Positions 22,725-56,688 of a stretch of DNA of 64,000 nt are shown in pieces. Both the position numbers and the translations under genes were made by a program. The DNA is from Myxococcota bacterium (GTDB lineage: Bacteria; Myxococcota_A; UBA9160; SZUA-336): contig CBDFGR010000002.1 of assembly GCA_965247115.1 (NCBI GenBank), positions 224,001 to 288,000 of the forward strand, read 5' to 3'. Under the pieces are notes generated by a model. It worked only from the letters and a program-made list of their open reading frames with translations, had not been told where the DNA came from and did not search any database. The first letter of the stretch is position 1, and each line of letters begins with the position of its first letter.

Positions 22725-22742
22725 TCCCTTCTCATCCCCCGC

Positions 22743-28395: not shown

Positions 28396-28396
28396 C

Positions 28397-28753: not shown

Positions 28754-28765
28754 CTGGATGGTTCC

Positions 28766-33055: not shown

Positions 33056-33073
33056 GTCACCCCCGTCGAAATC

Positions 33074-33469: not shown

Positions 33470-33494
33470 CTCATGCTTCCTTTCAAGAGACGGC

Positions 33495-34550: not shown

Positions 34551-34727
34551 AACCAACCCTCCTGGTGGAAGTCACTCGCCATGTCTGTCTGCGAGAGATG
34601 CACTCTGCATCTCCCAGTTCCAGATCGGCTCTGGCGAAGCCACTTCACGGATTGGTTAGGCCCGTGCGCCCACGTCCGGTTTAGGTTCCGGCAACCACGT
34701 CACGGCTTCTCGGCGCCGTGCAGCCTT

Positions 34728-36020: not shown

Positions 36021-36267
36021 GCCTACGTTCTCCTTCTGGCGCCGGGGCGATCTCGCCCACTACGCGCGGTCTGTTCTGCAGCTGCGTCGTTTCAACGCGC
36101 AGCGAGTTCACGTACTCCTTCAGGTCGCTCACGAGGTACCGGATGCACTGCCGCGATAGCCGGATGAACGGGGGGCCGTGCCGCTTGCGTCGCCACTCCC
36201 ACATTTGCCTCGTAGAGATGCCGAGAAATCGCGCAGCCTCTTCCGTGGTCCACAGCTCGTCTTCCAT
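36013..36267 (-). CDS. AlpA/excisionase-like HTH protein
   Basis: WTTEEAARFLGIS...WR...GPPFIRLS..IRY...DL. Confidence 0.8.
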   Translation of the reverse strand: MEDELWTTEEAARFLGISTRQMWEWRRKRHGPPFIRLSRQCIRYLVSDLKEYVNSLRVETTQLQNRPRVVGEIAPAPEGERRHG

Positions 36268-36279
36268 GCCTTCGTCGTC

Positions 36280-38433: not shown

Positions 38434-38447
38434 GCGCCCTCAGGCTC

Positions 38448-38975
38448 CTACTCCTGCTCCGATGGGACCCGCTGCTGTGGCGGGTCGGTATTCGGAGTGT
38501 CGCCGCCGAACTCTTGGGGACCAGGACGTTCCCGGCCTTCGCCCGTCGGTGGCACCTCGGGGGGATCGCCCACCTCCGGCAGACGATTGGCGGTCGGGTT
38601 CGAAGGATCCTCGGGGTTCGGAGCGGGCGGCGCGACCGCCTTCGATTCATCGGGGACGAGATCTTCGCGGATCCCGCTCGGCAGTTTGTTGAACGCGACG
38701 CGCTCGTAATGGGCTTGGAAGTCCTGGGCCCGTTCGACGAATCGGTGGCTGTCACGGAGATCCTGGCACAGGTAGTCTCCCGTACCTCCGCCCGTCACGT
38801 ATGCGGGACAGATCTGCCCCTTGGCATTGCGGTACTGCCGCTGCCGCACGGTGAAGCCGCCCTCGCCGTACACCTGCTGAGCGCGCACGTACTGCCTGAC
38901 CTTCTTCTTCGGGTCCGGATCCGCGAGCTCGCGGACGTAGAAGTTCGCGTTCTTTGCCTCTTCCATCTCGAGCAT
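38448..38975 (-). CDS. Phage hypothetical protein
   Basis: ORF between terminase and portal with RBS; Pro-rich tail. Confidence 0.55.
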   Translation of the reverse strand: MLEMEEAKNANFYVRELADPDPKKKVRQYVRAQQVYGEGGFTVRQRQYRNAKGQICPAYVTGGGTGDYLCQDLRDSHRFVERAQDFQAHYERVAFNKLPSGIREDLVPDESKAVAPPAPNPEDPSNPTANRLPEVGDPPEVPPTGEGRERPGPQEFGGDTPNTDPPQQRVPSEQE

Positions 38976-38989
38976 CGTTTCTCTCCCTG

Positions 38990-40579: not shown

Positions 40580-40848
40580 GCGGCGCCGCTCACCATCACG
40601 TTGAACGCTGAGGCGCAGTCGAGCGCCTGGTCTAGGTGCGCCTCGGGGTCATCGAAGTCGCGGAAGGTCTCGACGCGGCACATGGCGGGGCGTCGTTCGT
40701 AGATCGCGCACTGGTTCTCCGGCGTCAGCTCGCGGCAGACTCCGTCGCCCCGATCGAACGGGAGGTGGTAGAGGGGCTTGCGACAGCACGCCCCGCAGCC
40801 GATGCACCTCCAGCGGCCATCGTCGTCCAAAAAGTCCTGAGGGCTCAC
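40576..40848 (-). CDS. YkgJ-family CxxCxxCC cysteine-cluster protein
   Basis: CIGCGACC...C...CAIYERRPAMCR. Confidence 0.85.
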   Translation of the reverse strand: MSPQDFLDDDGRWRCIGCGACCRKPLYHLPFDRGDGVCRELTPENQCAIYERRPAMCRVETFRDFDDPEAHLDQALDCASAFNVMVSGAA

Positions 40849-40890
40849 GGGCGTCAGTTCCGAACTTGACTCGGCCGCGGACAGTTGCAG

Positions 40891-41502
40891 TCACGGGTCG
40901 TGAGAACGAAACGATTCGTCTTCTTCTTCATACAGTCCTCGAGGCAGCCATGGCACGCCTGAAGCTTCACCCCGTAGCCGTAGCGAGACAGCTCTCGAAG
41001 ACAAGACAGCCACCGGAACCTGAACCTCCGGGTCAGGATCGCCGGATTGCTCGCACGCGATCGCTGCGTTCGCCCACATGACCTCTTCCCGCACGCACCG
41101 GATCGCAGTAGTGACGTCTGGGCCCGCAGGCGCATGGTCCCGGATGACGCTCGACATCGCGTACCCCGAGCTCCGGATCGCCTCGAAGCGCAGAGCGACG
41201 TTCGGATCCGGATGGTTCTGCGGAGAGTGGTACGTGAACCAGTTCTCCAGGTTCGAATCGGGAACACGGCGACCCCGAGGAGGAGTGCCGCGGGCCGCCG
41301 CCGGGCTGTTCGTGAGCTTCACGCCGCGCGGCAGCTCCACGACGTTGCCATCCGACGCAAGGCACAAGTAGAACTCGATGGTTTCGCGGAGGGCCTGCCC
41401 GCAGTTGTCGTCCGCGGTCGCGGGCGGCTTCCGCTTGATTTCGTCGTAAAGCGGCCGCAGCTGCTCGAGGAGCTCCTGCGGGCTCATTCTCCCATCAGAC
41501 AA
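40891..41502 (-). CDS. Protein with Acb2/Tad1-like helical hairpin domain
   Basis: ENWFTYHSP...FEAIR...AIRCVREEVMWANAAIAC (aa ~85-151). Confidence 0.6.
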   Translation of the reverse strand: MSDGRMSPQELLEQLRPLYDEIKRKPPATADDNCGQALRETIEFYLCLASDGNVVELPRGVKLTNSPAAARGTPPRGRRVPDSNLENWFTYHSPQNHPDPNVALRFEAIRSSGYAMSSVIRDHAPAGPDVTTAIRCVREEVMWANAAIACEQSGDPDPEVQVPVAVLSSRAVSLRLRGEASGVPWLPRGLYEEEDESFRSHDP

Positions 41503-41675
41503 ATCGCACCCCCTTTGGCCGATATCGGTCGCGCGACTGCCGAACTCGGCGCCGCTCCGTCTCGATCTCCGAAACAGACTGACTCCCCGTGCACCATCGG
41601 CAGTCGGCCGCGCCGCCGGTGCGTACCGAGTAGGTCGACTTGCAGAAGTGCGACCGTGCCGTGTACGCCATTCGA

Positions 41676-42110
41676 TCAGTCCGCCGGCGAGATCTTCTCG
41701 ACCTGGTGCTCGTCGATCCAGTCGGCGACGCCACGCAGTACGTCCCGTGTCCCCTTCGGCCCGGCGTCCGACGTGATCTCGACCTTGCCGATACCCTCGA
41801 CACGACCGGTGAACGTCGCACTACCACCGTTCTTGCGCTGGCTGATGGTCAGCTCCATCCGCTGCATCTGCTGGCCGATGATCGGGACGTCCATCAGGCC
41901 GCCTCCCTCTGAGCGTGGCGCCCAACGAATGCTGTGCACTCGGTCGGCCTCCCGGCCAACGTCCTGAAGCGGTTCTACAAGCGGCGCCCCGCACCTCGGG
42001 TTCTCGCACGTAAACGCTCGATGACTCCGATGCGGCACGCAGTTCCGCTCCAGCCAGTCCACGATCGCGGAATCGCTCATCCGAGGCCGTATCCGCGGCT
42101 TCGCCATCAC
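41676..42110 (-). CDS. Phage hypothetical protein(s)
   Basis: ORF in late-gene orientation; internal RBS+ATG suggests possibly two genes. Confidence 0.45.
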   Translation of the reverse strand: MMAKPRIRPRMSDSAIVDWLERNCVPHRSHRAFTCENPRCGAPLVEPLQDVGREADRVHSIRWAPRSEGGGLMDVPIIGQQMQRMELTISQRKNGGSATFTGRVEGIGKVEITSDAGPKGTRDVLRGVADWIDEHQVEKISPAD

Positions 42111-42457
42111 TCCAGCCCCGGGATCCGCGCAGCAGGCGATTCCGCTTCTTCTGGCCCTGTTAGGGTCGAACTTGAACCAGATTCGACCCGCTGCGCAGCC
42201 AACTCTCGAAAGTGCTGCGACAGCAGATCGTCCGCGGTCGGAAGAGACACACGCGGCTCCCGATCCACCTCGACGACATCACGAGAAAAAAATTCGCCCT
42301 CGACTGCGGGAGAAAAATTTCCGGCTCAGGGGAGGACAGGGATTCGGCTTGTGGGTGGGTAGAGGGACCCGCGCTCGCGCTAGCTGGGGCCCCACCTTGC
42401 GCGGCCCCCACCCCCTCCGCTCCGGCCAGCGCTGGGGACCTCTCAGCCTCTGTGACG

Positions 42458-42997
42458 TCACAGCTCTGGGCCGCCGTCCTCGCAAGTATCCGAGATCGCT
42501 TGCGTATAAACGTCGCCCCCCGGATTAGGAATCCGGTGAGCATCGGGAGGGGCATACTCGAGCACGAGTTCACGCGCTACCTCGCGCAGCTTGAGGCGCA
42601 GACCATCGGGCAGCTGCGCGCCGTCGAAGCCGGTGATCGGCTCGGCTGTCGCGTCCGACGGTGAGTACGCTGGCAGCTTGCCCCAGCGGCGCTCGACCAG
42701 GTAGATAGCGCACTTACGCGCATCGGTGAGAGTCGGCCACAGCAGTTTGCGCCGCTTCCGGCCCTTGCGATCGCTGTACGTGAGCACGATGCCCTCGCCG
42801 CGCGAGATGCGTTCGAGCATGGCCAGTTGCTCGCGTGCGTCGCCGATCACGCTCTTGACGAGCGCCAGCGCGCCCTTGCGCCGTCCACCGCGCGGATTGC
42901 CGCTTTCTCCAGGCTTGAACTGGTGCGGCCGCAGGTTGGCCATGCTGCGCTCGTTGGCAGCGACCTTCTCGGTGAGGTTTACAGCGCTTTCGTCCAT
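42458..42997 (-). CDS. Putative terminase small subunit (DUF5681-type)
   Basis: ANLRPHQFKPGESGNPRGG; C-terminal YLVERRWGK. Confidence 0.65.
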   Translation of the reverse strand: MDESAVNLTEKVAANERSMANLRPHQFKPGESGNPRGGRRKGALALVKSVIGDAREQLAMLERISRGEGIVLTYSDRKGRKRRKLLWPTLTDARKCAIYLVERRWGKLPAYSPSDATAEPITGFDGAQLPDGLRLKLREVARELVLEYAPPDAHRIPNPGGDVYTQAISDTCEDGGPEL

Positions 42998-43185
42998 CGG
43001 AGCGACTACTGCCCTCAGCAGTGGGCTGGTTACATGCAAGCCCGTCTCTTCTCGGATGACAAGGGGGATGAGGCTCGAGGGTTACGGTGTTCGCTGGTGT
43101 GCGACGGGGATCGACGCGCGTAAGACGTGAGTGTGGGTTGGGCCGGAGACTCGGAGGGGAGAGGGAAGAGCGTCGGCGAGGGCGG

Positions 43186-43467
43186 GTGACGTCGGATCGT
43201 CCGAGGGCTGAGGTGCTGTCGAATCTGCGCGCGCTGCGGGAGGAGCGAGGGCTCTCGATGGCGGCGGTGTCGCGTCTCGCGTGGCTGAGCTATGAGACGG
43301 TGCAGCGGGTGGAGCTTGGGCAGGTGCTGGCGATGCAGGTGAGCACGCTGGTGCGGGTGGTGGCGGCGGCGCTGCGGTGCAAGCCGGTGGACATCGTGCC
43401 GGGGTTGGGGGCGGTACCTCGGGTGTTGGAGCCTCCGAAGGTACGGCAGCGGCGGCGTGGTCTCTAG
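43186..43467 (+). CDS. XRE-family HTH protein
   Basis: NLRALREERGLSMAAVSRLA..SYETVQRVELG. Confidence 0.65.
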   Translation: MTSDRPRAEVLSNLRALREERGLSMAAVSRLAWLSYETVQRVELGQVLAMQVSTLVRVVAAALRCKPVDIVPGLGAVPRVLEPPKVRQRRRGL

Positions 43468-45322
43468 GCGGTGGGGCTGGCTCTCGCAACTTCGGGTGGA
43501 ACTCGAGGGGTCGGAGCCCAACTGAGCCGGACCGCTCTTACGGTCTCTGGGGGTCCGCCGGGTGTAGACATACCTGTAGCCTTGTTCGGGCGCGGGGCGG
43601 ATTGGGAGAGATTGCGGGCAGCTATGTCGTGGGATCGGATGCGCTTGAGCGTCGGCCAGTTACGGCACCCCTGCGCCTTGCGGCGCTTCTGAACCTTCGC
43701 TCTTGCGCGATCGGGCCCGAGGCGGCAGCGGCTCTTTGGCGTGGTCCGGGCTTGAGTGAGCCGCGTTCCCGGTCCATAGCGTGCCTGCTCGGGGAGTTCA
43801 CGGGATGACCTGGCGTGGGAGGTCTCCCGGTTGGGTCACCGGCACCCGCGCCGGCCTGATCCATCATCGGAGCTTGTTCGCCTTCCGCCCGTGTTGCTGC
43901 ACGGCTCGCACCGTCCGCCCATCGGGTCGGAACCAGAGAGTCACGCGGACGAGCTGGCCGTGGATCTCGCGCCAGACCGTCCTTTCTCGAGGCCGTCTTG
44001 TCCTCTTCCCCCACGGCGGGGAAGGCTAGCGCGCCTGGCGCTTCGCTGCTCGGCCGAGCGTGCGCCGGGACTTCTGGCGCTTCGCCGCCCGGAGAAGCAC
44101 TCGCCGGACCCACGCGGAGAGGCTGAAGCCGGCGCGGTCGGCAGCCTGGTGGTCGCGCGTCACGCTCCTCAGCGCGTCGTGGGGATCAGCTATCGAGGCG
44201 GTCACGTGCCTGCCCTTCCGGCAGGGCCGAGGCGGCCCGGTGATCGAGCTTCGCTGCACTCTTCGCCATTCCGCATAGTTAGCCGACATATGGAAATATA
44301 TCGATCTCGTGGTACACCAGGGCTGGAAAGGCTTTCGCTCGGTCATCTCCATGGAATGCCTTAGTATGCTAGGTATACAGAAACGGAGCATTCCAGTGAG
44401 CGCTGCATACGAGAAGATCACCGACAAGACGGGCTACTCACTCAGCGTCGGTTCGTTCGTTCGCGCCGATAAGATACCGGGCACCCGATCGCATGTGAAG
44501 CGGGAGGATCGAGCGCCTTGAGGGCAACGTCGTCTGGATCCGGGTAGAGCGGGGCGGAGCTGCGCCCCTTCCAGCCGGAGCGCTCTCGAAGTGCTCACGA
44601 TGAGCGCCAGAAAGACGAAGCGGCCGCTCTGGGCGCGCAGTGCTCGCTCGAGATGCTGTGTTCTCGCAAAAGCCGAGGGCACGACGATGACGACGGCGCT
44701 AGCGCCGGACTGGCTAGGGTCGGAGAGCACACCCTCCCGGCTCCCGAAGGGGCGGCTCCACAAGGTCGAATGAGCGACGGCTGCGGCTACGTCGCAGACG
44801 CGTGACCGCGAAATGGCTCGACAGCTATGGCGCGCCGCTATGCCCCTGCGACCGGAGAGCCAATGCGCGACTGTCGGCCGCTCGAGCTGCTCCCGCGTGA
44901 GGCGTTTGGCCCCGAAAATACAGAAGGGGCTCTCGTGGGGGAGGCGCTCTACGTGACGCTGCGTCCGCGAAGCTTACTGCGGATTCTGCGATCGGTTTCA
45001 CGAGCGCGGGGACGTCATGGTCGTCCCGCGCTTCCGGTTGGGTAGGCGTGGGGGTGCTCCTGAAGGGCGCTATTGCGTGGACTGCTCGGCGGGGATCGAG
45101 CGCGAGGCGAGCGGGATCGTTCCGCGTGGTTGGCCGAGCGTCTCGGGGTTCGATTCGACCAGGGCGCAACGCGCGCCGCAGAACTTCCACCGCCGGCGCT
45201 GGGCGCTGTACCGATGAGCTGCCCGCGCTATCACTGCCCCCCCCCACGCGGCCGCCTTCCGGCGGTCTGGCGGCACGGTGTGAGTGCGGGCGAAAGCTCG
45301 CACACGAACCACACCGGTTGCT

Positions 45323-45649
45323 CTAGCCATCGCCGTACCACGAGGCGAAGTCGTCGAGCCGAATACACACAATCGCGTCGCTCAAGCGATGGCTCTTCCG
45401 CTTGAGCACCGCCAGCGGGAGCTTGGATCCGTTCCGGTCTGACTGTCGAGCTTGATCCAGCGCGTCGATCGAGTCGGCCCAGTGCACGACCTTGCGTAGC
45501 TTGCACTCGATCGCGAAGGCGTCGTGCACGACATCGTCTCTCCCGCCGTCCTTGCTTCCGTAGTCGGGTCCGCGACGATGGCCGCCGAGCTTCTTGGCGA
45601 CGTAGCGCTCGAACTTCTTCCAAGCCGGGTTAGTCGCGCCCATCGCCAC
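45323..45649 (-). CDS. Holliday junction resolvase-like PD-(D/E)XK nuclease
   Basis: WKKFERYVA...DDV...AIECK. Confidence 0.75.
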   Translation of the reverse strand: MAMGATNPAWKKFERYVAKKLGGHRRGPDYGSKDGGRDDVVHDAFAIECKLRKVVHWADSIDALDQARQSDRNGSKLPLAVLKRKSHRLSDAIVCIRLDDFASWYGDG

Positions 45650-45763
45650 GTAAGCTCAGGGCTCTTGCACTCGGGGAAGGCGAGGAGGACGGTGATTCTT
45701 CGGCGCGCTGCCCCCCAGGATGGCGCGGGGTCCGAGTATTTCTCACCGTCCTCCTCATAAGGT

Positions 45764-46177
45764 TCACGGCAGCGCCTTCGCCCACTCGGGCGTGTACCCG
45801 CGCGCGTATGGATGGTCGCTCCGTTCCGGAGCAAGACGCTTCGTCTTGCTCGCAAGCGGTGACGGGGGCGGTGGTGAGGGATGCATCCGCGCGACCTGTT
45901 GCTGGATGTGCTCTCGGATCGGCTCGGCGATGAGCGCGAGCTCAACGGGCGTTGCTGGGCGACCATCTACGGTTACCTTGCGCTTCCGCCAGTCGATCAT
46001 GGCCGAGCCGAGCGGCAGCAAGTCCTTCCGTGGCGTCGGTCTGCTCGACGCGTTTTGCGTGAACACGATCCGAACGACATCGAGCCTTGCCCCGCTCGCG
46101 ATCTTCCCCCAGTGCTGAAGCACGAGCTCCTTGTCCGGTAGACGGAGCATCACGTGGGCCAGGTGCATCCCGCTCAT
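45764..46177 (-). CDS. Phage hypothetical protein
   Basis: ATGA-coupled ORF in the early/middle operon. Confidence 0.5.
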   Translation of the reverse strand: MSGMHLAHVMLRLPDKELVLQHWGKIASGARLDVVRIVFTQNASSRPTPRKDLLPLGSAMIDWRKRKVTVDGRPATPVELALIAEPIREHIQQQVARMHPSPPPPSPLASKTKRLAPERSDHPYARGYTPEWAKALP

Positions 46178-46491
46178 TCGCGGTTGACGACGGCGCGCTG
46201 CTTCAGGAAGTCTACCGCCCATTTCGGGCACGGCTCCCACTTCTCGGGCGACGAGAGGAACGGCCCCCCGGCGCCCTCGGGCGGGACGACGCCGAGCAGG
46301 CCGTCGCCGACGACGCCGACCGTGTAGCAGAGCACGACGTTCGCTCGCTGCGGTGGCTCCTTCAGCTTGACCTTCTGGCCCTCCTTGAAGTCGGCTGCAT
46401 ATGCCAAGTTCACGACGAGCAAGGCGATGAAGGTCGCGGCGATCGCGAGTAGCACGCTGCGCCAGATCCCATCGAGTAGCTCCTCTTTCAC
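46174..46491 (-). CDS. Hypothetical membrane/exported protein
   Basis: N-terminal hydrophobic helix; coupled to neighbours. Confidence 0.55.
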   Translation of the reverse strand: MKEELLDGIWRSVLLAIAATFIALLVVNLAYAADFKEGQKVKLKEPPQRANVVLCYTVGVVGDGLLGVVPPEGAGGPFLSSPEKWEPCPKWAVDFLKQRAVVNRE

Positions 46492-46793
46492 GACTCATCC
46501 TCCTCCACGCTCGCACCCTGGAACAGCGCGAGCTGCCGCCCGACGTGGTGAAGCTTGATCTCCACGTCGTCGATCGGTTTCGTCTCAAGTTGGATCGACA
46601 CCTTCGAGAACTTGATCGTTACGCCAAGCTCACCTGTGTCCGGGTCCGTCTTGAAGATGCACTTCGGCTTGAACTCGGCGGCGGCCTTGCCGCCCTTGAT
46701 CGAGTCCGAGATCAACGGAAGCTCGGGCAGGAGCTTCGTGTAGATCTCCCCCGAGACCCTTACCGCGAGCTCCTCATGGTGTTTCTGTTGCAC
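46488..46793 (-). CDS. Phage hypothetical protein
   Basis: Coupled ORF with RBS. Confidence 0.55.
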   Translation of the reverse strand: MQQKHHEELAVRVSGEIYTKLLPELPLISDSIKGGKAAAEFKPKCIFKTDPDTGELGVTIKFSKVSIQLETKPIDDVEIKLHHVGRQLALFQGASVEEDES

Positions 46794-47022
46794 TACTGCG
46801 CTCCTCCTTCTGTACCGAGCGGATCGCCCGCTCGATGGCTTCCTCGTACTCGCGCTGAAGCAGTCCGCGCGCGAGCTGGCTGTGACAACCGAACAGGTTC
46901 TGCCGCGTGCGGTACACCTCAGACGCGACCATCATCGGGACCTGGTCCAAGTGGACATCGCACATGACGACGATGGGATTCCGTGGTGCTCGCTGGCAAC
47001 CCGCTACGCGACACACGCTCAT
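46774..47022 (-). CDS. Small Cys/His phage protein
   Basis: CRVAGC...MCDVH. Confidence 0.5.
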   Translation of the reverse strand: MSVCRVAGCQRAPRNPIVVMCDVHLDQVPMMVASEVYRTRQNLFGCHSQLARGLLQREYEEAIERAIRSVQKEERSSATETP

Positions 47023-47136
47023 AGCAGCCTCGGCTGGTGCGGATCGCTGGATCGAGCTTCGCGCGTCCTCTCTCGATCGTTCATCTCTCTGGGCTCATCC
47101 AACGTCTTAGCCTTAGCCACTGCATTCCCCCCTGAA

Positions 47137-47772
47137 TCAGAGCGTCATTTGCTCTGCTGCTGCTGGCTTTGCGGTCTTTGGCGAATCGAAGCCCAGCGAG
47201 CAGACGTGCCGCTCCCAGACCTCGAGGACATTCATGGGTTGGCGTGTAGTACCGACCAGCATCCATCGTTGCTGATACTGCGGGAGCCACGGGATCTCGC
47301 CGACGGCCTTCTTCGGTGCATAGTGCGCGTGCATCCCGTTCCCGCGCGCGACGACATCCCGGAGCAACGCCCGGTCTCTCTCATCGTCGGTGTAGCGGAG
47401 ACCCTCCGTCGTCGCGATCAAGGATCGAAAACGGTCCTCGACCTGCTCGTACCAGCGATAGAACTGGCTCTTACTCGTGGTGCCGGCGCCGTGGACTCCG
47501 TCGTGCTTCGCGATCGCAAACGCGTAGGCATCGTTGGGGAACGGCTTAAGCATCGGCTGGTCCCGCAGCTCGATGCGTGCAGCGAGCCGTAGGTGCTCGA
47601 GCTCGTAGCCTTCTCGATCCAGCTCCCCTGATCGCAACGCGCGCTCGATGTGCACGAGCTCCTTACGGGTCTCGCGGTGCTGCACGCAACGCGCCATCAT
47701 CGTCCAGCGAGCCTCATCCGGAGCCTTCGCGTCGCTGCTCGACTTCGCGCTTGTACTCGCTGACTCGGTCAT
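47137..47772 (-). CDS. Phage hypothetical protein downstream of the replication initiator
   Basis: 211 aa ORF overlapping the rep 3' end. Confidence 0.55.
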   Translation of the reverse strand: MTESASTSAKSSSDAKAPDEARWTMMARCVQHRETRKELVHIERALRSGELDREGYELEHLRLAARIELRDQPMLKPFPNDAYAFAIAKHDGVHGAGTTSKSQFYRWYEQVEDRFRSLIATTEGLRYTDDERDRALLRDVVARGNGMHAHYAPKKAVGEIPWLPQYQQRWMLVGTTRQPMNVLEVWERHVCSLGFDSPKTAKPAAAEQMTL

Positions 47773-48775
47773 CGGTGATCCCCTCAGGTCCTGGCGCCTT
47801 CCTCGAGGCCTCCAGGTACGTATCCACCTTGGCGTCGCGGAACGGTGCATCGAAGGTCAGTGCCTCGCGCGCGTTGAAGTCCCGCGTCACCTTGTCGATC
47901 CCTCCCCAGCTCGCGACACAGCCCCGGACGAGCTCCGAAAGCTGGTCTGGCTTCAGGTCTCGGTTGTGGCGCAGGAAGCGGCCGAGCAGCGCGCGGCGCC
48001 GCGCCGTCACCTCGTAGCGCTTGCCGAACGACGCGAAGGCCTTCTCGATCTCCGGGATCGCGGCCTCGAGCAGCGGATCCGGGGCCCGGTTGCTGCGACC
48101 GTTCGGTTTCCTTTCGAGCCCGGGCAGGCCGGGCGGAGCCCGTGGGGTGTGTGTGTCTTGAGAAAGCGATGGATCAGAGTTCAGAGGCTCGGCTTGGCTA
48201 GGCATGGCATGGCTTGGCATGGTGGTGCGCACAGATGGGTCGTTTGTGCGCACGGACGCTCCTTTTGTGCGCATACCTGCGCTCGCCGTGCGCATAAAGC
48301 CATCGTCTGTGCGCTCGCCGTGCGCATCCATGCGCTCACGCGCGGCGTAGAGCTTCTCGATCTCGGCCCTCTCCGCCTTCGAGACCCGAGTCAGACGAGG
48401 CCGAGAGCCGTCCGCGAAGTAGAGGACGGCGCGGCCGAGCCGCATGTGCACCGAGTCCTCGCAGTGCTCGGACCAGTCATGGAGAAGGAGGCAGTCGCCG
48501 ATCTCGTCAAGCCAGGCGGCTTCGCGGAGTGCCTCCAGGAGCGCGTCGGGTGCGCCGTCCCAGCCGCAGCCATCGGCGATGTCGTCCGGGTCGGTCTTTG
48601 AGAGATCTCCTTCCGGCGCGTAGCGCGCGGAGTACTCCCAGAGCCGCTGCATCAACCCGACGGCGTAGTTGTGCGCGATGGCGAAGCCGACGCCGAGCTC
48701 GGGGCCGAGGAGACGCGCGAGCTTCCGCATCTTCGGGTGCGCCGGCGTGCCTTGCTTCAACCTCTCGCCCCCCAT
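47714..48775 (-). CDS. Phage replication initiator protein
   Basis: HPKMRKLARLLG...AVGLMQRLW...GDL...HDW N-terminal domain; internal iteron array. Confidence 0.75.
   Translation of the reverse strand: MGGERLKQGTPAHPKMRKLARLLGPELGVGFAIAHNYAVGLMQRLWEYSARYAPEGDLSKTDPDDIADGCGWDGAPDALLEALREAAWLDEIGDCLLLHDWSEHCEDSVHMRLGRAVLYFADGSRPRLTRVSKAERAEIEKLYAARERMDAHGERTDDGFMRTASAGMRTKGASVRTNDPSVRTTMPSHAMPSQAEPLNSDPSLSQDTHTPRAPPGLPGLERKPNGRSNRAPDPLLEAAIPEIEKAFASFGKRYEVTARRRALLGRFLRHNRDLKPDQLSELVRGCVASWGGIDKVTRDFNAREALTFDAPFRDAKVDTYLEASRKAPGPEGITDDRVSEYKREVEQRREGSG
48186..48337. repeat. Putative replication origin: seven GGCWH pentamers plus eight phased TGCGC repeats
   Basis: TGCGC starts at 48226, 48247, 48268, 48278, 48289, 48310, 48321, 48331. 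Confidence 0.65.
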
Positions 48776-48960
48776 GGGCTAGTGCGGTGGTGCTGCTATC
48801 TCCCTGCGAACCGGATGCCCGGGGTAGCCGCGTGTACCCGGGGGCAAGCGGAGAGATCTAACGACGCGTGCGAGGTGCCGTCGCGACCTGCGAGAATTGC
48901 TTTCCCCCGCCGCTCGCAGCCGTGTAGGCTTCCCCACAGCGACCCCGACTCCGGGGCGGA

Positions 48961-49368
48961 ATGGAAATGACGTTGCTGCGAGCGCTGGCCGGCCTCCTCG
49001 TGATCTGGACGCTCGTGGCGTACTCCTGCGAGAGACTCGTCGGTCCCACGCCGCTCTCGCGGGTCATGACGTGGCGCCAGGAATCCTCGGATTTCGCCGC
49101 GCTTCGGCGCGCGGTCCTGTTTCGGGCAGAACGGTGTATCGAGGAGGCCCAGTTTACTTCGGAGCAGGTGTGGATGCTGTGTGAGCACGCTCGCGCGGAC
49201 CTCATGATTTACAGCACGTCGATAATGGTTGAGCGAGACGCCCGGGCTCGAAAGGATGGGTCGCGATGCGACCGATCGAGATGCGGTCGACTCGAAATCT
49301 GCATGGAGGCGATCGGCAGCCGTGCGAGTTTCGCCGAGCAGTACACCTGCAAGGACCTCCGTCGGTGA
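48961..49368 (+). CDS. Cys-rich exported/membrane hypothetical protein (moron-like)
   Basis: N-terminal hydrophobic segment, several Cys, opposite strand to neighbours. Confidence 0.45.
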   Translation: MEMTLLRALAGLLVIWTLVAYSCERLVGPTPLSRVMTWRQESSDFAALRRAVLFRAERCIEEAQFTSEQVWMLCEHARADLMIYSTSIMVERDARARKDGSRCDRSRCGRLEICMEAIGSRASFAEQYTCKDLRR

Positions 49369-49769
49369 CAACCGTGCATCCGCAAGAAAAGTTGACACCG
49401 CGCCCACGGACTCAGTAGAAAGATCCGCGCGACACTTGTGGGGCGGTGAATACGGAGCGGTGGATGGAGTGCTTGTCACGCCGCGCCTTCGTCCGCGCAG
49501 TTCGCACCGGAGTCGTCGAACTCGCCGAAGACAAGATCGACGGCCTTGATCTCGCCGTTCGAGTCAGCGATCGGCAGGCTCATCTTCACGCTGGGAGTCG
49601 CGTCGCATGTGCTCGGGCGCGAGGTTCGGAATATCGCGGCGGTCTCGCGTGCCGCACATAGACTCGGCAAGATGAAACTCACCGATGACTGAGCGAGCCC
49701 CTCTTGGATCGAACTGTACCGTCCCGATATCCGGAGGTGGATCGAGTCCCTTGGGCACCTGGAGTGACC

Positions 49770-50000
49770 TCACGCGGCTCCCTCTGTGGCGGGTTCGGCG
49801 GCGCTTACGCGGCGTCGCGCGGGAAAGTGGTCCTCTGGCCGGACTTTTCCTCCGGTGGCTGACGTGATTCGGGCCCAAACCCGACCCCGAACGTCGCCTC
49901 CGTTGCAGACCCTGGAGACAGCGCTCTGGTAAATCCCAGAGCGCTTTGCAAAGGCGATCTGAGTCTCGTCTCGCTCAAATAGGTATTGCTCGAGCCGCAT
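49770..50000 (-). CDS. Cro-like HTH protein
   Basis: MRLEQYL...TQIAFAKRSGIYQSAVSRV...ITSATGGKV; divergent from the repressor. Confidence 0.8.
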   Translation of the reverse strand: MRLEQYLFERDETQIAFAKRSGIYQSAVSRVCNGGDVRGRVWARITSATGGKVRPEDHFPARRRVSAAEPATEGAA

Positions 50001-50015
50001 CGGGAAGAGAGTTAT

Positions 50016-50070
50016 CCTTATTTGGCTCAAGCGTCCATCTTTATTTGGCTGGACCTCCGCTATCCAAATC
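50016..50070. promoter_or_regulatory. Putative repressor operators (TTATTTGGCT x2, TATCCAAAT)
   Basis: Repeats at 50018-27, 50041-50 and 50061-69 in the cro/cI gap; same motif as an IR at 50704-50736. Confidence 0.6.
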
Positions 50071-50108
50071 GGGATTCCCGCATTAACCTTTGAGGTCGGG
50101 AGGTTTCG

Positions 50109-50696
50109 ATGACTAAGCGGGGGAAATACGTGCCGTGGAAGCCGCGTCGCGTAGAGTTCGAGATGACCACGGGGAAACGAGCTGGCAACTCTTTGGAGGA
50201 CGTTCTCCGGGATCTAGTCGTCAAGGCGCGCGACGATCTGGGGATGAACCAGAAGGACTTTGCGAAGAATCTCGGGATCAGTCAGTCGGCCTTGAGCAGA
50301 TTCGAGAGCGATGCGCCGAACCAGTCGGGGAATTCTGAGCAGCTCAAATCGTCCGCGTTAACGAGGATTTGCGTTCTTCTCGATGAGAATCCTGTGAACT
50401 TTCTCATCGAACACCCACTGTACGACGGCGCGACGCGTGCCCGCATGACGTTTCCAAAGGACCATCTATACCGCCGCTACAACGCCCAGCTCAAAAACGC
50501 CGAAGCGCTGGGACTGCTTCCAAATCTCAAGCGGGCAAAGGACTTGGGAGTGTTCGAACAGGCGGTCGCTGCCGTCGCCAATGTCGTCGAGGCGGCGGAG
50601 GAATCCCGCGCCACTATGCCACCACTACAGCCACGCCCGGGTCCGCGTGATTCCCATCGTTCACCTAGATCGTCCCAAACTCGCCGATCCTCTTAG
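50109..50696 (+). CDS. CI-like repressor (XRE HTH, no S24 peptidase domain seen)
   Basis: ARDDLGMNQKDFAKNLGISQSALSRFE. Confidence 0.75.
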   Translation: MTKRGKYVPWKPRRVEFEMTTGKRAGNSLEDVLRDLVVKARDDLGMNQKDFAKNLGISQSALSRFESDAPNQSGNSEQLKSSALTRICVLLDENPVNFLIEHPLYDGATRARMTFPKDHLYRRYNAQLKNAEALGLLPNLKRAKDLGVFEQAVAAVANVVEAAEESRATMPPLQPRPGPRDSHRSPRSSQTRRSS

Positions 50697-50703
50697 GTCA
50701 ATT

Positions 50704-50736
50704 CCTAATTTGGGTTGAATCGATATCCAAATAAGG
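50704..50736. promoter_or_regulatory. Putative operator CCTAATTTGG-N13-CCAAATAAGG
   Basis: Imperfect IR in the AT-rich gap before the early operon. Confidence 0.55.
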
Positions 50737-50773
50737 TTACATTTGACCTCCGTCACCTACGACGGAGGCCTCG

Positions 50774-51583
50774 ATGCCCGATCCCGCCCCTTCCCCTCCC
50801 GACCCGAGGCATCCTCTCCCCGACCGTCTCGCCCAGCTGGACTCCCTGCACCTGAACACAGGTGCCTCCTCAAGCTTCGACGAAGGCCACTGCGCGCTCG
50901 AGGTGGTCGCCTGGCTCGCAGGGGAGGAGCACAGCGACCATCCGCAGTGCACGAGTGCCGTGGTCGGAGACTTCGTCCGCTGCTGGAATGACAACCTTTT
51001 AGACGAGGATCGAGACCGTCTGCTCAAGCCCCTGCTCCCCCGCCTCGTGGGATCGGAAGGAGATCCCGACACGGAGCTCGCCCGCTCCTACCTAGCCCTC
51101 GACTGGCTCTGCCGGGTCCATACGCCCGCATGGCTGGATCTCGTGGAGAGTCTGAGCCCGCATGCCGCGAAGCTGCGCGGACTCGGCGAGATCACGGACC
51201 TCGTTCGTGCAAGCGCGGCGCAGCCGATGATCCGTGCTGCGAGGGACGCTGCGGGGGACGCTGCGAGGGACGCTGTGGGGGCCGCTGCGGGGGACGCTGC
51301 GAGGGACGCTGTGGGGGCCGCTGCGGGGGCCGCTGCGAGGGTCGCTGCGTGGGACGCTGTGGGGGCCGCTGCGGGGGCCGCTGCGAGGGTCGCTGCGGGA
51401 GCCGCTGTGGGGGCCGCTGCGGGGGACGCTGCGAGGGTCGCTGCGGGAGCCGCGGCGGGGGCCGATGCGAGGGTCACCGCGTGGGACGCTGCGAGTGCCG
51501 CGCTCGAGCCGACCGTGCTCACGCTCCAGGATTCGGCACGCGATCTCGTTTGTCGAATGCTCGCGGTGGGGGAGTCCGCATGA
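50774..51583 (+). CDS. Phage Ala-rich repeat protein
   Basis: CALEVVAWLAGEEHSDHPQC, WND; about 20 four-residue xxAA repeats. Confidence 0.75.
   Translation: MPDPAPSPPDPRHPLPDRLAQLDSLHLNTGASSSFDEGHCALEVVAWLAGEEHSDHPQCTSAVVGDFVRCWNDNLLDEDRDRLLKPLLPRLVGSEGDPDTELARSYLALDWLCRVHTPAWLDLVESLSPHAAKLRGLGEITDLVRASAAQPMIRAARDAAGDAARDAVGAAAGDAARDAVGAAAGAAARVAAWDAVGAAAGAAARVAAGAAVGAAAGDAARVAAGAAAGADARVTAWDAASAALEPTVLTLQDSARDLVCRMLAVGESA
51237..51500 (+). repeat. Degenerate 12-bp tandem repeats (GGGNCGCTGYGN)
   Basis: Visible tandem array coding RDAA/GAAA/RVAA. Confidence 0.85.
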
Positions 51584-52482
51584 CTCCCTCCTCCCCTCTC
51601 CGCAGCGATCTGAAGAGATGGGCGAGAGAGTCGAAGCCAGGCGTCTACCGTGGCCTCTCCGAGACCGAGTACGACGCGATCGACGCGGTCCGCAGCACGA
51701 AGCTCAGCTACTTCGCCGACGGTAGGACGCCCGCGCACGCGAAGTACCTGATCGACCACCCTCCGCCCCCGAAGGATCACCTCGACATCGGCGCCGCTCT
51801 GCACTGCGCCGTGCTCGAGCCGGAGAAGTTCGACGACGAGTGGGTCGTCGCTCCTAAGGTCGACCGCCGCTACAAGAAGGACAAGGCCATCTGGGCCGAG
51901 TTCGAGGCGGAGAACGCGGGCAAGGGGATTCTGAAGCGCCAGGACATGAACCTGGTCTTGGCGATGCGCGACGGGGTCAACCGGAACGAGCTCGCGCGCC
52001 GGCTGCTGAAGGGGGCGGGGCAGAACGAGCTCACGCTTGTTTGGGAGGACGAGCAGTCGGGTCTGCTTTGCAAGGCGAGACTCGACCGGATCACGGAGTA
52101 CGAGGGCTACGTCATCGTCGTCGACCTGAAGACGACGGCGCGGCTCGCTTCCAAGGAAGCGTTCGCGCGAGCGATGGGAGACTTCGGCTACCACCGTCAG
52201 GAGGCGTTCTACCGGATGGCGATGGACGCGCATTTCGGCGAGATGCCGCGTCGGTTCGTCTTCATCGTGATCGAGAAGGCGGCTCCGCACATCGTCGCGA
52301 CGCATGAGACCGGGCCGGAGTCTCTCGATGCGGGTCAGCGTGAAGTGCGCACGCATCTGACGGAGTACGCCGCGTGTACGGAGTCGGGCGTCTGGCCTGG
52401 ATACGGAACGTCGACGCTACTGACCGAGCTGCCACCGTGGCGGCTGCGACGAGTCGAAAGAGACGAAGAGGTCGTGTTTTGA
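51580..52482 (+). CDS. RecE / exonuclease VIII-like PD-(D/E)XK nuclease
   Basis: GAALHCAVLEP, CKARLD, VDLKTT, YHRQEAFY, FVFIVIEK. Confidence 0.9.
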   Translation: MTPSSPLRSDLKRWARESKPGVYRGLSETEYDAIDAVRSTKLSYFADGRTPAHAKYLIDHPPPPKDHLDIGAALHCAVLEPEKFDDEWVVAPKVDRRYKKDKAIWAEFEAENAGKGILKRQDMNLVLAMRDGVNRNELARRLLKGAGQNELTLVWEDEQSGLLCKARLDRITEYEGYVIVVDLKTTARLASKEAFARAMGDFGYHRQEAFYRMAMDAHFGEMPRRFVFIVIEKAAPHIVATHETGPESLDAGQREVRTHLTEYAACTESGVWPGYGTSTLLTELPPWRLRRVERDEEVVF

Positions 52483-53555
52483 ACTGCAAGAGCTGCAACG
52501 CCCCGGAGGGCTCCCCGCACGGAACAAACTGCAAGGTTCACCCTCCGGGCTCCAGCGAAGAGAAGCCCGAGATGGAGGAGCAACGCGGGGTCGCCACGAT
52601 CGACGATTCCACTGGGGCGATCGCGGACATGAGCGAGGGCGGGCTGCGTCCGACCAACGCAAAGGAGCTCGCCGCGCTCGCGAAGCAGGCGGCCCTCTCG
52701 AGCCTGGTTCCCGAGCCCTTCCGCAACAAGCCGAACGACTGCTTCGTCGCGATGGCGATGGGGAGAGAGATCGGCTTCGACGCGTTCCAGAGCTTGCAGA
52801 TGTTTCACGTCGTCAAGGGGAAGGTAGGTCTTCCCGGCGAGGCGATGGTGGCGATCATCCGGAGTCGCGAAGAGTGCGAGTCGCTCAGGATGGGCACCGA
52901 GGGGTCGCTCGAGGATGGAAACCTTACGGGGTGGGTCGTCTCAAAGCGGCGCGGTCAATCTGAGAACGACAAGGTGACCTTCAGTCTAGAGGACGCGATG
53001 CTGGCTGGGCTCTACCCCGGCAAGAAGGATCGCAACGGCGAGCCGAGCGTCTGGTCAAAGTACCCGAAGGACATGCTCATCTGGAAGGCCGTAGCGCGCG
53101 ACTGCCGACGGAACTGGGCCGACATGACCCGGCGTGTTCCCGTCGCTGAGGACATGCCCGGCTACGGCGAGTCAAGGCTTGAGATCAACGTCACACCGCC
53201 GCGCGAGGAGACTCCGACGGCGGACCCGGCTCGTGCACTCTTCGCGGGTGAGTCGATCGAGCCTGAGATCGTCGGACCCGAGGGGCCCGGCGGTCCCGCT
53301 GCACCGAACGCAGAGCCTGCGAACGCCGGGACGCCCTCTGACGATGCGAATGCAACGGGTCGCCCGGCTCCGAGTGAGGGATCCAGTGAGGCCACGCCGG
53401 AGCCGGGACTTCCCAACGAGGACGGCCCGAAGTTCTCGGCGCTACCCGAGGACTTCGACCCGAGTCGCGACAACTGCCCCGACTGCGAGCGCACGGCTGA
53501 TCTCGGTCACAACCCGGGGTGCTCCATCGCGAAGCTGCTGAAGGAGCAGAGGTGA
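52479..53555 (+). CDS. RecT-like ssDNA annealing protein
   Basis: SSLVPEPFRNKPND, GREIG, WSKYPKDMLIWKA; follows RecE. Confidence 0.8.
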   Translation: MNCKSCNAPEGSPHGTNCKVHPPGSSEEKPEMEEQRGVATIDDSTGAIADMSEGGLRPTNAKELAALAKQAALSSLVPEPFRNKPNDCFVAMAMGREIGFDAFQSLQMFHVVKGKVGLPGEAMVAIIRSREECESLRMGTEGSLEDGNLTGWVVSKRRGQSENDKVTFSLEDAMLAGLYPGKKDRNGEPSVWSKYPKDMLIWKAVARDCRRNWADMTRRVPVAEDMPGYGESRLEINVTPPREETPTADPARALFAGESIEPEIVGPEGPGGPAAPNAEPANAGTPSDDANATGRPAPSEGSSEATPEPGLPNEDGPKFSALPEDFDPSRDNCPDCERTADLGHNPGCSIAKLLKEQR

Positions 53556-53815
53556 CACGAACCACCGACCAAGAGTTGGTCGACCGCGTCCCCTGTGAGG
53601 GCTCCGAGGACTGCGAGCAACTGGTCGATCGCGACGGCTTCCGTCTCTGCGCCGAGCATATGAAGGAGGCATGGGACGGGATGGAGGAAGCGGAGAACAC
53701 GCCTCCGTCTCGCAGACCGAGGCGAAGAGATGGCAACTGAGCCGACGGCTCGACTTGCCATGATCTGCGGTGTGGTCTGGTATGGTGCGATCCAGCTTGT
53801 GGGAACGCTCGTGCC

Positions 53816-54073
53816 ATGAAGGACCCGTGCTGGAGTCTCGATCAGTGTGCAGAGTTCCTTCAGTGCAGCACCAAGACCGTGCGAAAGATGATGAGGGGCG
53901 GATTCCCGCACTTCTACGTGGGCCGGAGACCTCGGTTCCGTCCGGAGGCGGTAAGGGAGTGGGTGCATGAGCAAGAACGGAGTCGCCCCCATAGCCTCAC
54001 CGTCGCTGCGGATCGAATCCGGGAGTCCCGTGTCCAGGAGCGCATCCTGAGAAGAGCCGCCCGTGTCTCGTAA
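53816..54073 (+). CDS. Excisionase-like HTH
   Basis: WSLDQCAEFLQCSTKTVRK...VGRRPRF; overlaps the integrase start. Confidence 0.78.
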   Translation: MKDPCWSLDQCAEFLQCSTKTVRKMMRGGFPHFYVGRRPRFRPEAVREWVHEQERSRPHSLTVAADRIRESRVQERILRRAARVS

Positions 54074-55412
54074 GGCAGACGGCCCTCGAATCTTCAAGCG
54101 TGGCGCGCACTACTACGTGGAGTACGTAGAAGGCAACGAGATACTCATCCCCCGTCAGTCCCTCCGGACCAAAGACGCCGGGAAAGCAAGGGCCGCTGCG
54201 TCGAGGCTCATCCTGGAGTATGAAGAGCGCGGCTACACACCAGAGGGTGACGAGCTCCTCTTCCGAGACGCAGCCGCCGCCTACCTCAAGCACGGGATGT
54301 CGAACCTGGCAGGTACAACGCAGGATGACCACAGAAATCATCTCCGTCTTGGCGGAATGCTGGACCGGGCTTTTGGCGACATCCCGATATCTCAACTCAC
54401 GGATGAGTCGCTACTCCGGTGGTGGGAAGAGAGCATCGAGGGGAAGCGAGCGACAAGTACGGGACGGCGATATCTCGATAGCGTCTCGGCAATTATGCGC
54501 CGAGCCCGTCGTCACCGGCTCATCGTGCACAATCCCGTCGTAGACTTTCAGGCCATTATCCGGGAGGAGAACAAGACCAAGAAGGGCAGAGCTCTAAGTG
54601 AGGCGGGGAAGCATGTCCGGCCTATTGAGGACCCCGCGGAAATCGAACGCATCCTTGCTTCGGCCCGAGAGGAGAGTCTAGAAGATCACGTGCTGGTGCT
54701 GCTCATGCTCGACGCTGGACTGCGCATCGGAGAAGCCATGCAGATCCGCTGGCGGGCAGTCAACTGGGGAGAGGACGAGAACGACCTAGGCCGCAGCCTC
54801 GAGATCTCGGAGTCGAACCCCAGAGGCATGTACCCCGGTGATCCACCCAAGAGTGGGAGGACGCGCTATGTGGATCTCTCCAGGCGGCTACGACGGGTCC
54901 TGATGGAGCTCTACACACAAGAGTTCCGGCCCAGCCCGGATCGTGTCATTGTGCCGCGCGACCAGGGCAACTGGAGGCAGAGGCAGTGGCGCAGAATCCT
55001 GGCGCGTGCCGGGACCACTCGAGCGTGGCGACCGAAAGATCTGCGCGACACCTTCGCGAGCCAGCTGCTCTCGAATGGTCAGGAGCTCGTGCACATCGCC
55101 GACCAGCTGGGCCATTCGTCCGTGGGCGTGACGGAGCGTCACTACACCAAGTACATCCGTCGCAAGAGGTATCAGCCGACACCGCCACTAGCCTATGGCG
55201 AGCTCCCGACGGACGCGCTGGCTCGGCTTGGCGCGCCCAATAAACGTCCACAAAGCGGACACTCGGGGTTTTCAGACCAACACGCTCCTGGCGACAGTGC
55301 AGAAACTGTTAGCAATGTCGCGGGCTTCCGTGGTGAGCGCGGCCGGGATCGAACCGGCGACCGGCGGATTCGGAGTCCGCAAGGATCAGGTCTCGCAGCG
55401 TCCGGTCCTTGA
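54063..55412 (+). CDS. Tyrosine integrase (prophage form; ORF crosses the right att core)
   Basis: AGLRIGE, PKSG, KDLRDTFAS, LGHSS, HY catalytic set. Confidence 0.93.
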   Translation: MSRKADGPRIFKRGAHYYVEYVEGNEILIPRQSLRTKDAGKARAAASRLILEYEERGYTPEGDELLFRDAAAAYLKHGMSNLAGTTQDDHRNHLRLGGMLDRAFGDIPISQLTDESLLRWWEESIEGKRATSTGRRYLDSVSAIMRRARRHRLIVHNPVVDFQAIIREENKTKKGRALSEAGKHVRPIEDPAEIERILASAREESLEDHVLVLLMLDAGLRIGEAMQIRWRAVNWGEDENDLGRSLEISESNPRGMYPGDPPKSGRTRYVDLSRRLRRVLMELYTQEFRPSPDRVIVPRDQGNWRQRQWRRILARAGTTRAWRPKDLRDTFASQLLSNGQELVHIADQLGHSSVGVTERHYTKYIRRKRYQPTPPLAYGELPTDALARLGAPNKRPQSGHSGFSDQHAPGDSAETVSNVAGFRGERGRDRTGDRRIRSPQGSGLAASGP

Positions 55413-56688
55413 GGCGCTCCGCGACGGCGCGGCCGATCGACGCCAGGACATCGTCGACGCCGGAAGACGCCGGCAAGCGCCGCGGGCCCTGCAGGGTCCT
55501 GTTCCCTTCGCGTCTGACGGCATCGAGAATCTGCGCGACGTCGACGAGCTCGGGCGCCCGACCGGGCATGTACGAGAGCTCGGGACCTGCGGCGTTGAGC
55601 AGCAGCCCGTGTCGCTCGAGCGACAGCAGGACGTCTTCTACCAGATCGATCGAGATCCCGCTCCAGCGTGCCAGAGCCCGCAGCGTCTCCGGCGCGCCGC
55701 CGGCAAAGTGCGCTCGACCGATCCGGGTCATCAGCAGCAGCGCCAGCTTCTCCCGGTCCTGGCCCGACAGGAGCCGAGCTTCTCCCTCGGGAGTGAGCTG
55801 CTCGGGGTACTGTACGTAGAAGGCGAGACGCGCCCCGATCAGCAGGATGAGCCAGCTCACGTAGAGCCACATGAGGAACAGGATCAGCACGGCGAAGCCG
55901 GAGTAGATGGCCGTGTAACGCGTGGATGACGCGACCACAGTCGCAAAGCCGAAGCCCAGGCCCTCCCAGAGAGCTCCGGCAACCACGCCGCCGATCAGCG
56001 CCGCACGCAGCTGCACCTTCGCATTCGGCACGAACGCGTACACGAACGTGAACGCCGCGATTACCAAAAGATAAGGAACGAGCTCTCTCACCATATCGAC
56101 GGCGCTGCCGAGCGCCTGTACTTCCGTGAGGCGCTGAACGGCGGAGGCGCCCGCAAGCGAGGCCGTGAGTCCGATCGCCGAGAACATCAGCACGGGACCT
56201 ACCATCACGACGGAGAGGTAGTTGCTGAAGCGCTGACCCAGGCTGCGACTCTGACGCGTGTGCCACGCGTAGTTGAACGAGCCCTCGATCTTTTGAATCA
56301 GGGAGATAACCGTGTAGAGCAGCATGGCAAGGCCGAGAGAGCCCAGGATGCCGACGCGCATGTTGTCGACGAAGCCGATCACGTTCTGGCTGATGTCTGC
56401 GCCTCTCTCGCCGAGGGGCGCGAGAAAGCGCAGCAGGAGTGGCTCGATCTGGTTGTGCACGCCGAAGCCTTTGAGCACGGAGAAGCTCAGCGCAAGCAGC
56501 GGGACGAGCGAGAGCAGGCTCGTATAGACGAGACTCATGGCGTGGAGGGTCAGCTGGCCCTCTCGAATATCCACGACGAGCGCGTATACCGTGCGCAGCG
56601 CCCGCATTCCCAGGGCACTCAGCGCGGGCCGTCCGGCGAGATCTACGCGCCAGATCGCGCGCTCGATGACGTCACCCAGGCCCCTCAT
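55309..56688 (-). CDS. yihY: YihY/BrkB family membrane protein with C-terminal Rrf2-like HTH; last 18 aa phage-derived
   Basis: LVYTSLLSLVPLLA, IEGSFNYAW, YAFVPN, IYSGFA, WLYVSWLILLIGA. Confidence 0.85.
   Translation of the reverse strand: MRGLGDVIERAIWRVDLAGRPALSALGMRALRTVYALVVDIREGQLTLHAMSLVYTSLLSLVPLLALSFSVLKGFGVHNQIEPLLLRFLAPLGERGADISQNVIGFVDNMRVGILGSLGLAMLLYTVISLIQKIEGSFNYAWHTRQSRSLGQRFSNYLSVVMVGPVLMFSAIGLTASLAGASAVQRLTEVQALGSAVDMVRELVPYLLVIAAFTFVYAFVPNAKVQLRAALIGGVVAGALWEGLGFGFATVVASSTRYTAIYSGFAVLILFLMWLYVSWLILLIGARLAFYVQYPEQLTPEGEARLLSGQDREKLALLLMTRIGRAHFAGGAPETLRALARWSGISIDLVEDVLLSLERHGLLLNAAGPELSYMPGRAPELVDVAQILDAVRREGNRTLQGPRRLPASSGVDDVLASIGRAVAERLKDRTLRDLILADSESAGRRFDPGRAHHGSPRHC
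55331..55375 (-). tRNA. 3' half of tRNA-Arg(CCG) carried by phage attP (fragment only)
   Basis: CTCCGAA loop, TCCGC, CGGTC, GCCGG-TTCGATC-CCGGC T-arm, CGCGCTC-A-CCA; no D-arm or 5' acceptor strand upstream. Confidence 0.85.

Follow-up and report, generated by a model that had tools for sequence, protein, structure and literature searches.

The window analysed here, a stretch of 64,000 nucleotides from a Myxococcota genome, contains a prophage at 11403..55375 (unstranded; 43,973 bp including one copy of the attachment core), as determined from in-silico excision and an empty site. The prophage encodes a P22-like portal, a gpA-type terminase, a cro/cI-like pair, a PDDEXK nuclease, RecT, Xis, Int and several DNA methylases. 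Near its right end, an excisionase-like HTH_17 gene (53816..54073, plus strand) overlaps the start of a tyrosine integrase gene (54063..55412, plus strand). The integrase of this lysogen is 449 aa in length, carries the Pfam domains Phage_int_M (67-162) and Phage_integrase (191-363), and is assigned by its family hits to PF00589 and phrog_1; its invariant residues R221, R328, H351 and Y361 are all located before the core. The longest common core is the 11-bp sequence CGGATTCGGAG, with copies at 11392..11402 (left, plus strand) and, within int, at 55365..55375 (right, plus strand). The presumed 7-bp overlap, TTCGGAG, corresponds to 11396-11402 on the left and to 55369-55375 on the right.

The host yihY/BrkB-Rrf2 gene (55309..56688, minus strand) is broken near its 3' end and now encodes 459 aa, ending in phage DNA; its native 3' end is displaced to 11294..11391 (minus strand). 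Deletion of the 43,973 bp in silico restored a protein of 473 aa, the stop of which overlaps the start of a ligase gene at 11304. In the same-genus genome G002, yihY is unbroken and its C-terminus is similar to the reconstructed one; the gene was matched in 11 of the 41 genomes searched. An empty site was represented by a contig from another study (X5), which extends for 33 letters to the right of the core and whose loose end agrees with 11362-11391 in 29 of 30 letters. In the best-matching sample, a contig of run X2 has an 18-letter loose end at the empty site, which is below the bridging threshold, and the occupied left end is bridged by contigs of X2 (10500-11438) and X4 (10500-11618). Occupied and empty forms thus probably coexist in that sample. 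Contigs of X1 and X3 are continuous through the core over 11373-11438. The circle junction attP was absent from the contigs of four runs of one sample, in which rare forms are dropped by assembly, and gave no match in a pattern scan of metagenomes. The prophage boundary rests on the empty site, the yihY gene of G002, the junction of a sister prophage described below and arm-like repeats AACGTCCAC, and not on the core repeat alone. The core coordinates and the excision arithmetic of the preliminary description were correct. By itself the 11-bp repeat is uninformative, as 2060 11-mers recur within the window, and prophage copies have been collapsed or rearranged in the assembly; a chance repeat or an assembly artefact would nevertheless have to account for the empty-site contigs, the unbroken yihY, the sister junction and the reads bridging the left end, and we regard either as extremely improbable.

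The host gene for an ATP-dependent DNA ligase (9754-11304, minus strand) contains a single in-frame TAG at codon 210 (10675-10677), presumably within the motif that immediately precedes the catalytic lysine. No other letter was found at this position in four runs of one sample, and recoding of TAG found no support, as there was no PylS above the cut-off. The ligase gene, directly downstream of the interrupted yihY, is probably a pseudogene.

The att junction falls at int codon 438, 77 residues past Tyr361. As had been described, the int ORF reads through the right core to give 449 aa, and in-silico joining of the two ends yielded a form of 492 aa ending at TGA 11566-68, which overlaps the ATG at 11565 behind GGAGGAGG. 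The additional 54 codons are supplied by the P' arm (11403..11568, plus strand); the resulting tail has a net charge of -10 (-9 over the last 20 residues), and its final Glu codons serve at the same time as the Shine-Dalgarno sequence of the next gene. The count of 54 further open codons was right, but an open run of this length could readily arise by chance (p ~0.20 with Markov resampling; 0.40-0.48 when random prophage or genome positions were taken). Likewise, the short lysogen form of 449 aa is real, but its length is an accident of the secondary site: near-identical integrases end after 463 aa in the tRNA gene and after 472 aa at a second non-tRNA site, each length being set by the DNA across the junction. 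Among 119 homologues, conservation falls from ~0.5 to ~0.1 and ends around residue 390-400. The comparison of homologous C-termini thus spoke against the proposed switch, as the swapped tail begins ~47 residues beyond the conserved, folded part. AlphaFold predicted disorder for residues 397-448 (pLDDT <50), a low value that partly reflects the shallow alignment there. Putative binding sites were noted on both arms, one arm-like repeat AACGTCCAC just past the conserved coding region in the P arm (55243..55251, plus strand) and two in tandem in the P' arm (11484..11504, starting at 11484 and 11496, plus strand).

Neither the lysogen nor the circle form of the window integrase resembles the host ssrA tag ADENLALAA. 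A C-terminal degron pattern was also considered and found unconvincing (Ala terminal in 13 of 65 tails against a background of 11%). A 424-aa integrase copy on contig C1, ending before the core, was set aside as evidence because it owes its end to an extra base where window-type meets tRNA-type sequence, which may be a polishing artefact. Relatives of the integrase come mostly from Myxococcota assemblies; none turned up in a single-protein scan of viral contigs, and an annotated phage collection gave distant integrases only (22-27% identity for the top matches, and less than 60% for all 319).

The origin of attP could be traced to a tRNA gene. Positions 55331..55370 of the phage (minus strand) are the 3' half of tRNA-Lys(CTT) with its CCA, and all 40 nt match the displaced fragment found at the left end of a sister prophage in the same genome. 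This sister occupies tRNA-Lys(CTT), and its int, which differs from the window int by 6 aa in 420, reads into the intact regenerated tRNA. At its other end the displaced tRNA fragment is followed by the same P' arm, from the base equivalent to 11403, and an empty tRNA-Lys site was present in run X8. From these sequences, tRNA-Lys(CTT) is identified as the native target of the phage. The anticodon stem forms an inverted repeat, and the 7-nt anticodon loop is likely to be the strand-exchange overlap. Sites centred on the anticodon have been described as a class in Islander, where tRNA islands likewise have an attP with a tRNA 3' fragment and a crossover in the anticodon loop, and where an int extending across attP is acknowledged as an exception (PMC4383910). 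As the window copy has left the tRNA gene, a search based on tRNA genes would miss it; ARAGORN found no tRNA within the window. A sub-threshold Rfam match to tRNA-Sec over the right end (E=0.058) was dismissed because this sequence is the tRNA-Lys half plus yihY. The circle form of the sister is 491 aa in length and retains both the open tail and the stop/start overlap, although its 3' end has diverged and another ORF follows.

The sister prophage (G000:C3:2564454-2643177) has its ends in opposite orientation and contains a 2.8-kb inverted repeat of 98.6% identity (2605713-2608459 / 2640415-2643177), which points either to mis-scaffolding or to inversion between two prophage copies. A P' arm similar to that of the window (81% over 125 nt) was also found in another prophage of the same genome, the unrelated integrase of which stops ~80 nt before a tRNA-Phe half; there the related arm is non-coding. 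In that element (G000:C3:1040943-1041837) an attP-like junction with the tRNA-Phe 3' half is intact, while tRNA-Phe itself lies on another contig. It shares the upstream xis-region DNA, and the integrase module has therefore been swapped. Further copies of the window prophage, with 99-99.9% identity, lie at contig ends (G000:C3:1-5992, C1:1350-6001 and C2:2205454-2217248); the starts of C1 and C3 have one common flank, which suggests strain haplotypes.

The overlap of the window prophage differs by two nucleotides from that of its native target: TTAAGAG in the tRNA and TTCGGAG at both window prophage ends, 55371-55372 being the positions that depart from the tRNA-Lys anticodon loop on the right. 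TTCGGAG was also found in the empty yihY site from another study, in two further right ends (C3:5973 and C1:1359, sharing one flank) and, natively, in a paralog of the flank of this second non-tRNA site. The variant overlap is thus host-derived as judged from these sequences, being native both in the empty yihY site and in the flank paralog. An origin from tRNA-Arg(CCG) was also considered for the variant loop and dismissed, as this host tRNA has another stem and loop. The C3 integrase at the second site has no difference from the window integrase in 1260 nt. This same variant at a second copy with an identical integrase suggests that attP has likely adapted, and the simplest reading of the sequences is that a single attP change was probably followed by insertion at matching sites while the primary site was occupied. 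Specificity in tyrosine integrases is governed by overlap identity, as reported for the 7 bp of mv4 (bioRxiv 10.1101/2023.11.06.565760). Sa3int phages such as phi13, which also use a tyrosine integrase at alternative sites, are reported to take host bases into attP after insertion at a secondary site and then to integrate better there; attL and attR usually differ after a mismatched insertion, and natural lysogens are known in which both carry the same adapted sequence (PMC8649754). The window prophage shows the corresponding pattern, with attL and attR equal to each other and to the host sequence, and different from the primary overlap, at a non-primary site. That an identical int occurs with this overlap at the second site would be an indirect pointer to better integration of the changed attP. 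The present case differs from Sa3int in that the primary site is a tRNA anticodon loop, occupied by the sister prophage rather than mutated, and in that adaptation is deduced from sequence comparison. A chromosome-jumping model has also been put forward for lambda (cited in PMC8074189 and PMC8371274).

We next considered the genes beyond attP. The first ORF (11565..11822, plus strand; 85 aa) is a methylase remnant, consisting of a 197-nt copy (99%) of 15371-15567 read out of frame and then the last 36 nt of the methylase in frame; the source gene is at 14895-15887. It had no Pfam or PHROG match. Both remnant junctions are covered by reads, with no differences listed; at the left junction the coverage extends over 30 letters, slightly short of the bridging threshold. 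The stop of the remnant overlaps the start of a DUF5131 (gp37-like) gene (11816..12799, plus strand), the first intact gene beyond attP, so that a relay chain is possible. The claim that the long integrase is coupled to a gp37/methylase operon therefore stood in one part, as the stop/start overlap is real, and fell in another, as the ORF at 11565 is neither gp37 nor a methylase. Its start has a strong RBS of its own, GGAGGAGG, with ordinary RNA structure (z = -0.19). Integration was further said to cut the downstream genes off, and this was borne out: the co-oriented genes of 11565-18504 are parted from the cI-recT-xis-int run. The separation follows from the location of attP in the middle of the operon, for which read-through of int is not needed; the separation of int and sib in lambda is a parallel case. 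A search for sigma-70-like promoters in 11200-16400 found none, with 0.8 expected by chance, and is uninformative.

The region beyond attP (13357-21850) also encodes two N6/N4 methylases, a D12-class methylase, a C5 methylase, MTaX1 and an HhH-GPD glycosylase. A 28-nt repeat occurs at gene boundaries of this early module (13026, 13408, 14861 and 15886) and is possibly a recombination point for the shuffling of small genes. Elsewhere in the prophage, the ORF at 50774-51583 contains a 12-nt tandem array (51164-51547) encoding Ala-rich repeats, with variable copy number in at least four other prophage regions.

The relatives of the integrase were then surveyed at the DNA level. Of 173 loci, 71 were usable; 61 without the motif, 20 that were too short, 16 outside the family and 5 duplicates were excluded. 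A full antisense tRNA was present in 34 of the 71, with the int ORF crossing the anticodon in 22 and stopping before it in 12. The set includes 15 tRNA types, and the crossing ORFs use all three tRNA frames (9, 9 and 4). The int frame was open through att in 22 of 34 cases versus 13 and 9 for the other two frames (Fisher p=0.003, counting kin that are not independent); with read-through about twice that of the other frames, some selection is possible. The target tRNA (Arg-CCT, SeC or Lys-TTT) of loci L058, L065, L124, L136 and L273 is on the same strand as int, opposite to most. Among 114 homologue tails, 49 carried an antisense T-loop peptide signature, a rough measure, with the cases spread over all three frames, and none had a net charge of -6 or below in the last 20 residues, most database entries being lysogen forms.

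The circular attP was rebuilt for nine pairings from eight crossing integrases, some taken from tandem arrays and perhaps not cognate. Two of the nine initial pairings had no seed match; further sets of 11 and 16 regions each gave one crossing integrase with a far end, while in the remaining regions the motif, the far end or the crossing was missing. The nine rebuilt circle tails were 5, 6, 9, 9, 9, 14, 21, 52 and more than 130 aa in length. None of the nine was acidic; the eight with a visible stop had net charges of +1 to +7, and none of these eight circle forms overlaps a start codon. Sequence similarity among the tails was not detected. In seven pairings, counting up to nine codons into each tail, 28 of 56 residues were Lys or Arg; the two other frames gave 10 of 56 and 13 of 60, and inclusion of G061 brought the counts to 31 of 65 against 29 of 132 (p=0.0005). 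A hand count of elements that do not cross also gave a basic composition after the core (14 of 47 residues), and the purine-rich P' arm thus explains part of the Lys/Arg signal, leaving the tail as a lead only. A circle-only basic tail is possible at the family level, as judged from rebuilt sequences. In six tRNA-integrated elements of 6-27 kb (L199, L204, L214, L220, L226 and L233), the circle forms end in 5-14 Lys/Arg-rich residues. Of the forms examined, only those of the window phage and its tRNA-type sister combine a long acidic tail with a stop/start overlap. A literature search found no prior description of the tail of this integrase family.

The layout was compared with known systems in which integration alters a phage protein. 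In Myxococcus phage Mx8, attP is within int and integration is reported to modify rather than inactivate the enzyme (PMC6070905). In both phages the tyrosine integrase gene follows an overlapping excisionase gene, integration replaces the 3' end of int and leaves the conserved domain whole, and int reads antisense through a tRNA 3' half 60-80 residues past the catalytic Tyr. In Mx8 (GenBank AF396866) the antisense T-loop is at residues 417-420, 63-66 past Tyr354, as compared with codon 438, 77 past Tyr361, in the window. The phage-form tail of Mx8 is, however, ~112 aa with a net charge of +2, as against 54 aa and -10; its next gene begins 47 nt after the stop, whereas stop and start overlap in the window; and only the window copy sits in a protein-coding gene. 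The two integrases have no significant pairwise similarity (BLASTP E=0.034), so that they do not qualify as orthologues. The analogy with Mx8 drawn in the preliminary description therefore applies to the int-internal attP and its geometry, and not to the acidic tail and the coupling, which are not Mx8 features. In mycobacteriophage BPs, integration also rewrites the C-terminus of a phage protein, but there attP is part of the repressor gene, and the phage form carries an ssrA-like tag at its end (PMC4557955); in the window attP is in int, the repressor-like genes (49770-50696) are 4.7 kb from att, and the tails are unlike the host tag. The archaeal suicidal integrases of SSV1 and pTN3 likewise have the recombination site inside the integrase gene and tRNA targets, but in these the enzyme is divided into Int(N) and Int(C), and the catalytic domain is severed (PMC8371274); the conserved window enzyme lies as a whole on one side of the core.

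Taken together, we favour, with moderate confidence, the reading that the window contains a retargeted temperate phage with an adapted overlap, and that the tail swap is a by-product of a compact attP and not a selected switch. On this model, the core sites for Int would be the inverted repeat of the anticodon stem and its arm sites the AACGTCCAC repeats, with strand exchange over the 7-bp loop. TTCGGAG would have become fixed in attP through repair or excision after the phage had, on a rare occasion, inserted at a mismatched site, and the phage with this attP would then prefer sites having that overlap. The int ORF would simply run on to the first in-frame stop past residue ~390, which in the circle would happen to land at the start of the next early-operon gene. 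One weak point is that two sites might share the dinucleotide by chance, as 7 of 31 comparable genome sites carry the variant dinucleotide, 4 of these being related to the element. Alternatively, a tRNA-type phage might have inserted twice at mismatched sites without any change of attP, the ends having been converted to host sequence by repair or recombination. The genome does contain many near-identical prophage segments with signs of rearrangement among the copies, and the left end of the second site is absent from the assembly. Such a history nevertheless requires that both yihY ends were converted and that the second site should show the same dinucleotide, and the identity of attL and attR is unlike the usual outcome of a mismatched Sa3int insertion (PMC8649754). 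Moreover, both ends carry TTCGGAG, so that any precise excision from yihY would yield a circle with the variant overlap, and the progeny would carry it in any case. We therefore consider persistence of an unaltered attP very unlikely.

For the tail itself, the retargeting reading with a neutral tail swap has to be set against two functional ones. Translation of the long integrase might drive the DUF5131 and methylase genes through the stop/start overlap, to be shut off by integration. The overlap is retained in the tRNA-type sister, the remnant returns to the methylase's own frame before its stop, which overlaps the DUF5131 start, and the promoter search in 11200-16400 agrees as far as a chance expectation of 0.8 permits; yet the coupled ORF is a remnant, its start has an RBS of its own and no unusual structure, none of the eight related circle forms overlaps a start, the next gene of Mx8 begins 47 nt past the stop, and loss of upstream transcription is expected for any mid-operon attP. 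The recombination-controlled coupling switch that had been proposed is accordingly improbable, and an acidic tail as an evolved switch fared no better, no homologue tail of 114 being as acidic and the eight rebuilt tails being basic. The other reading is that the circle-only tail alters the activity, specificity or stability of the integrase, the lysogen form being the weaker. With the same geometry as in Mx8, such tuning of activity stays possible by analogy, as the Mx8 swap, also located beyond the catalytic domain, is reported to change activity (PMC6070905). The enrichment of read-through in the int frame and the Lys+Arg excess in circle tails point in the same direction, and in a family-wide version the working element may be the short basic circle-only tail, with the window phage as an outlier. 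This reading is held back by tails without sequence similarity, the basic composition of non-crossing elements, the long and acidic window tail itself, one third of relatives that never cross, and pairings from tandem arrays that are maybe not cognate; we consider it doubtful, though not negligibly so. Still less probable, if only by a little, is the combined view that the family uses att-crossing as a switch, the tail gained in the circle (mostly short and basic, in the window phage long, acidic and tied to the following gene) tuning integration, and that one lineage in a wild population is leaving tRNA-Lys for protein-coding and other non-tRNA sites solely through the 2-nt overlap change, with essentially the same integrase.

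The att-spanning layout of Mx8 and the adaptation of attP at secondary sites are both already known, and the window prophage is another case of the Mx8 layout. It provides a natural test case, in which a single genome has near-identical integrases at a tRNA site and at two non-tRNA sites, two overlap bases apart, and the first step of attachment-site switching could thus be studied with a single enzyme. Crossing of att is common yet optional in this integrase family, which cautions against calling every read-through a switch. If the circle-only basic tail is functional, Mx8-style regulation would reach a large family of environmental elements.
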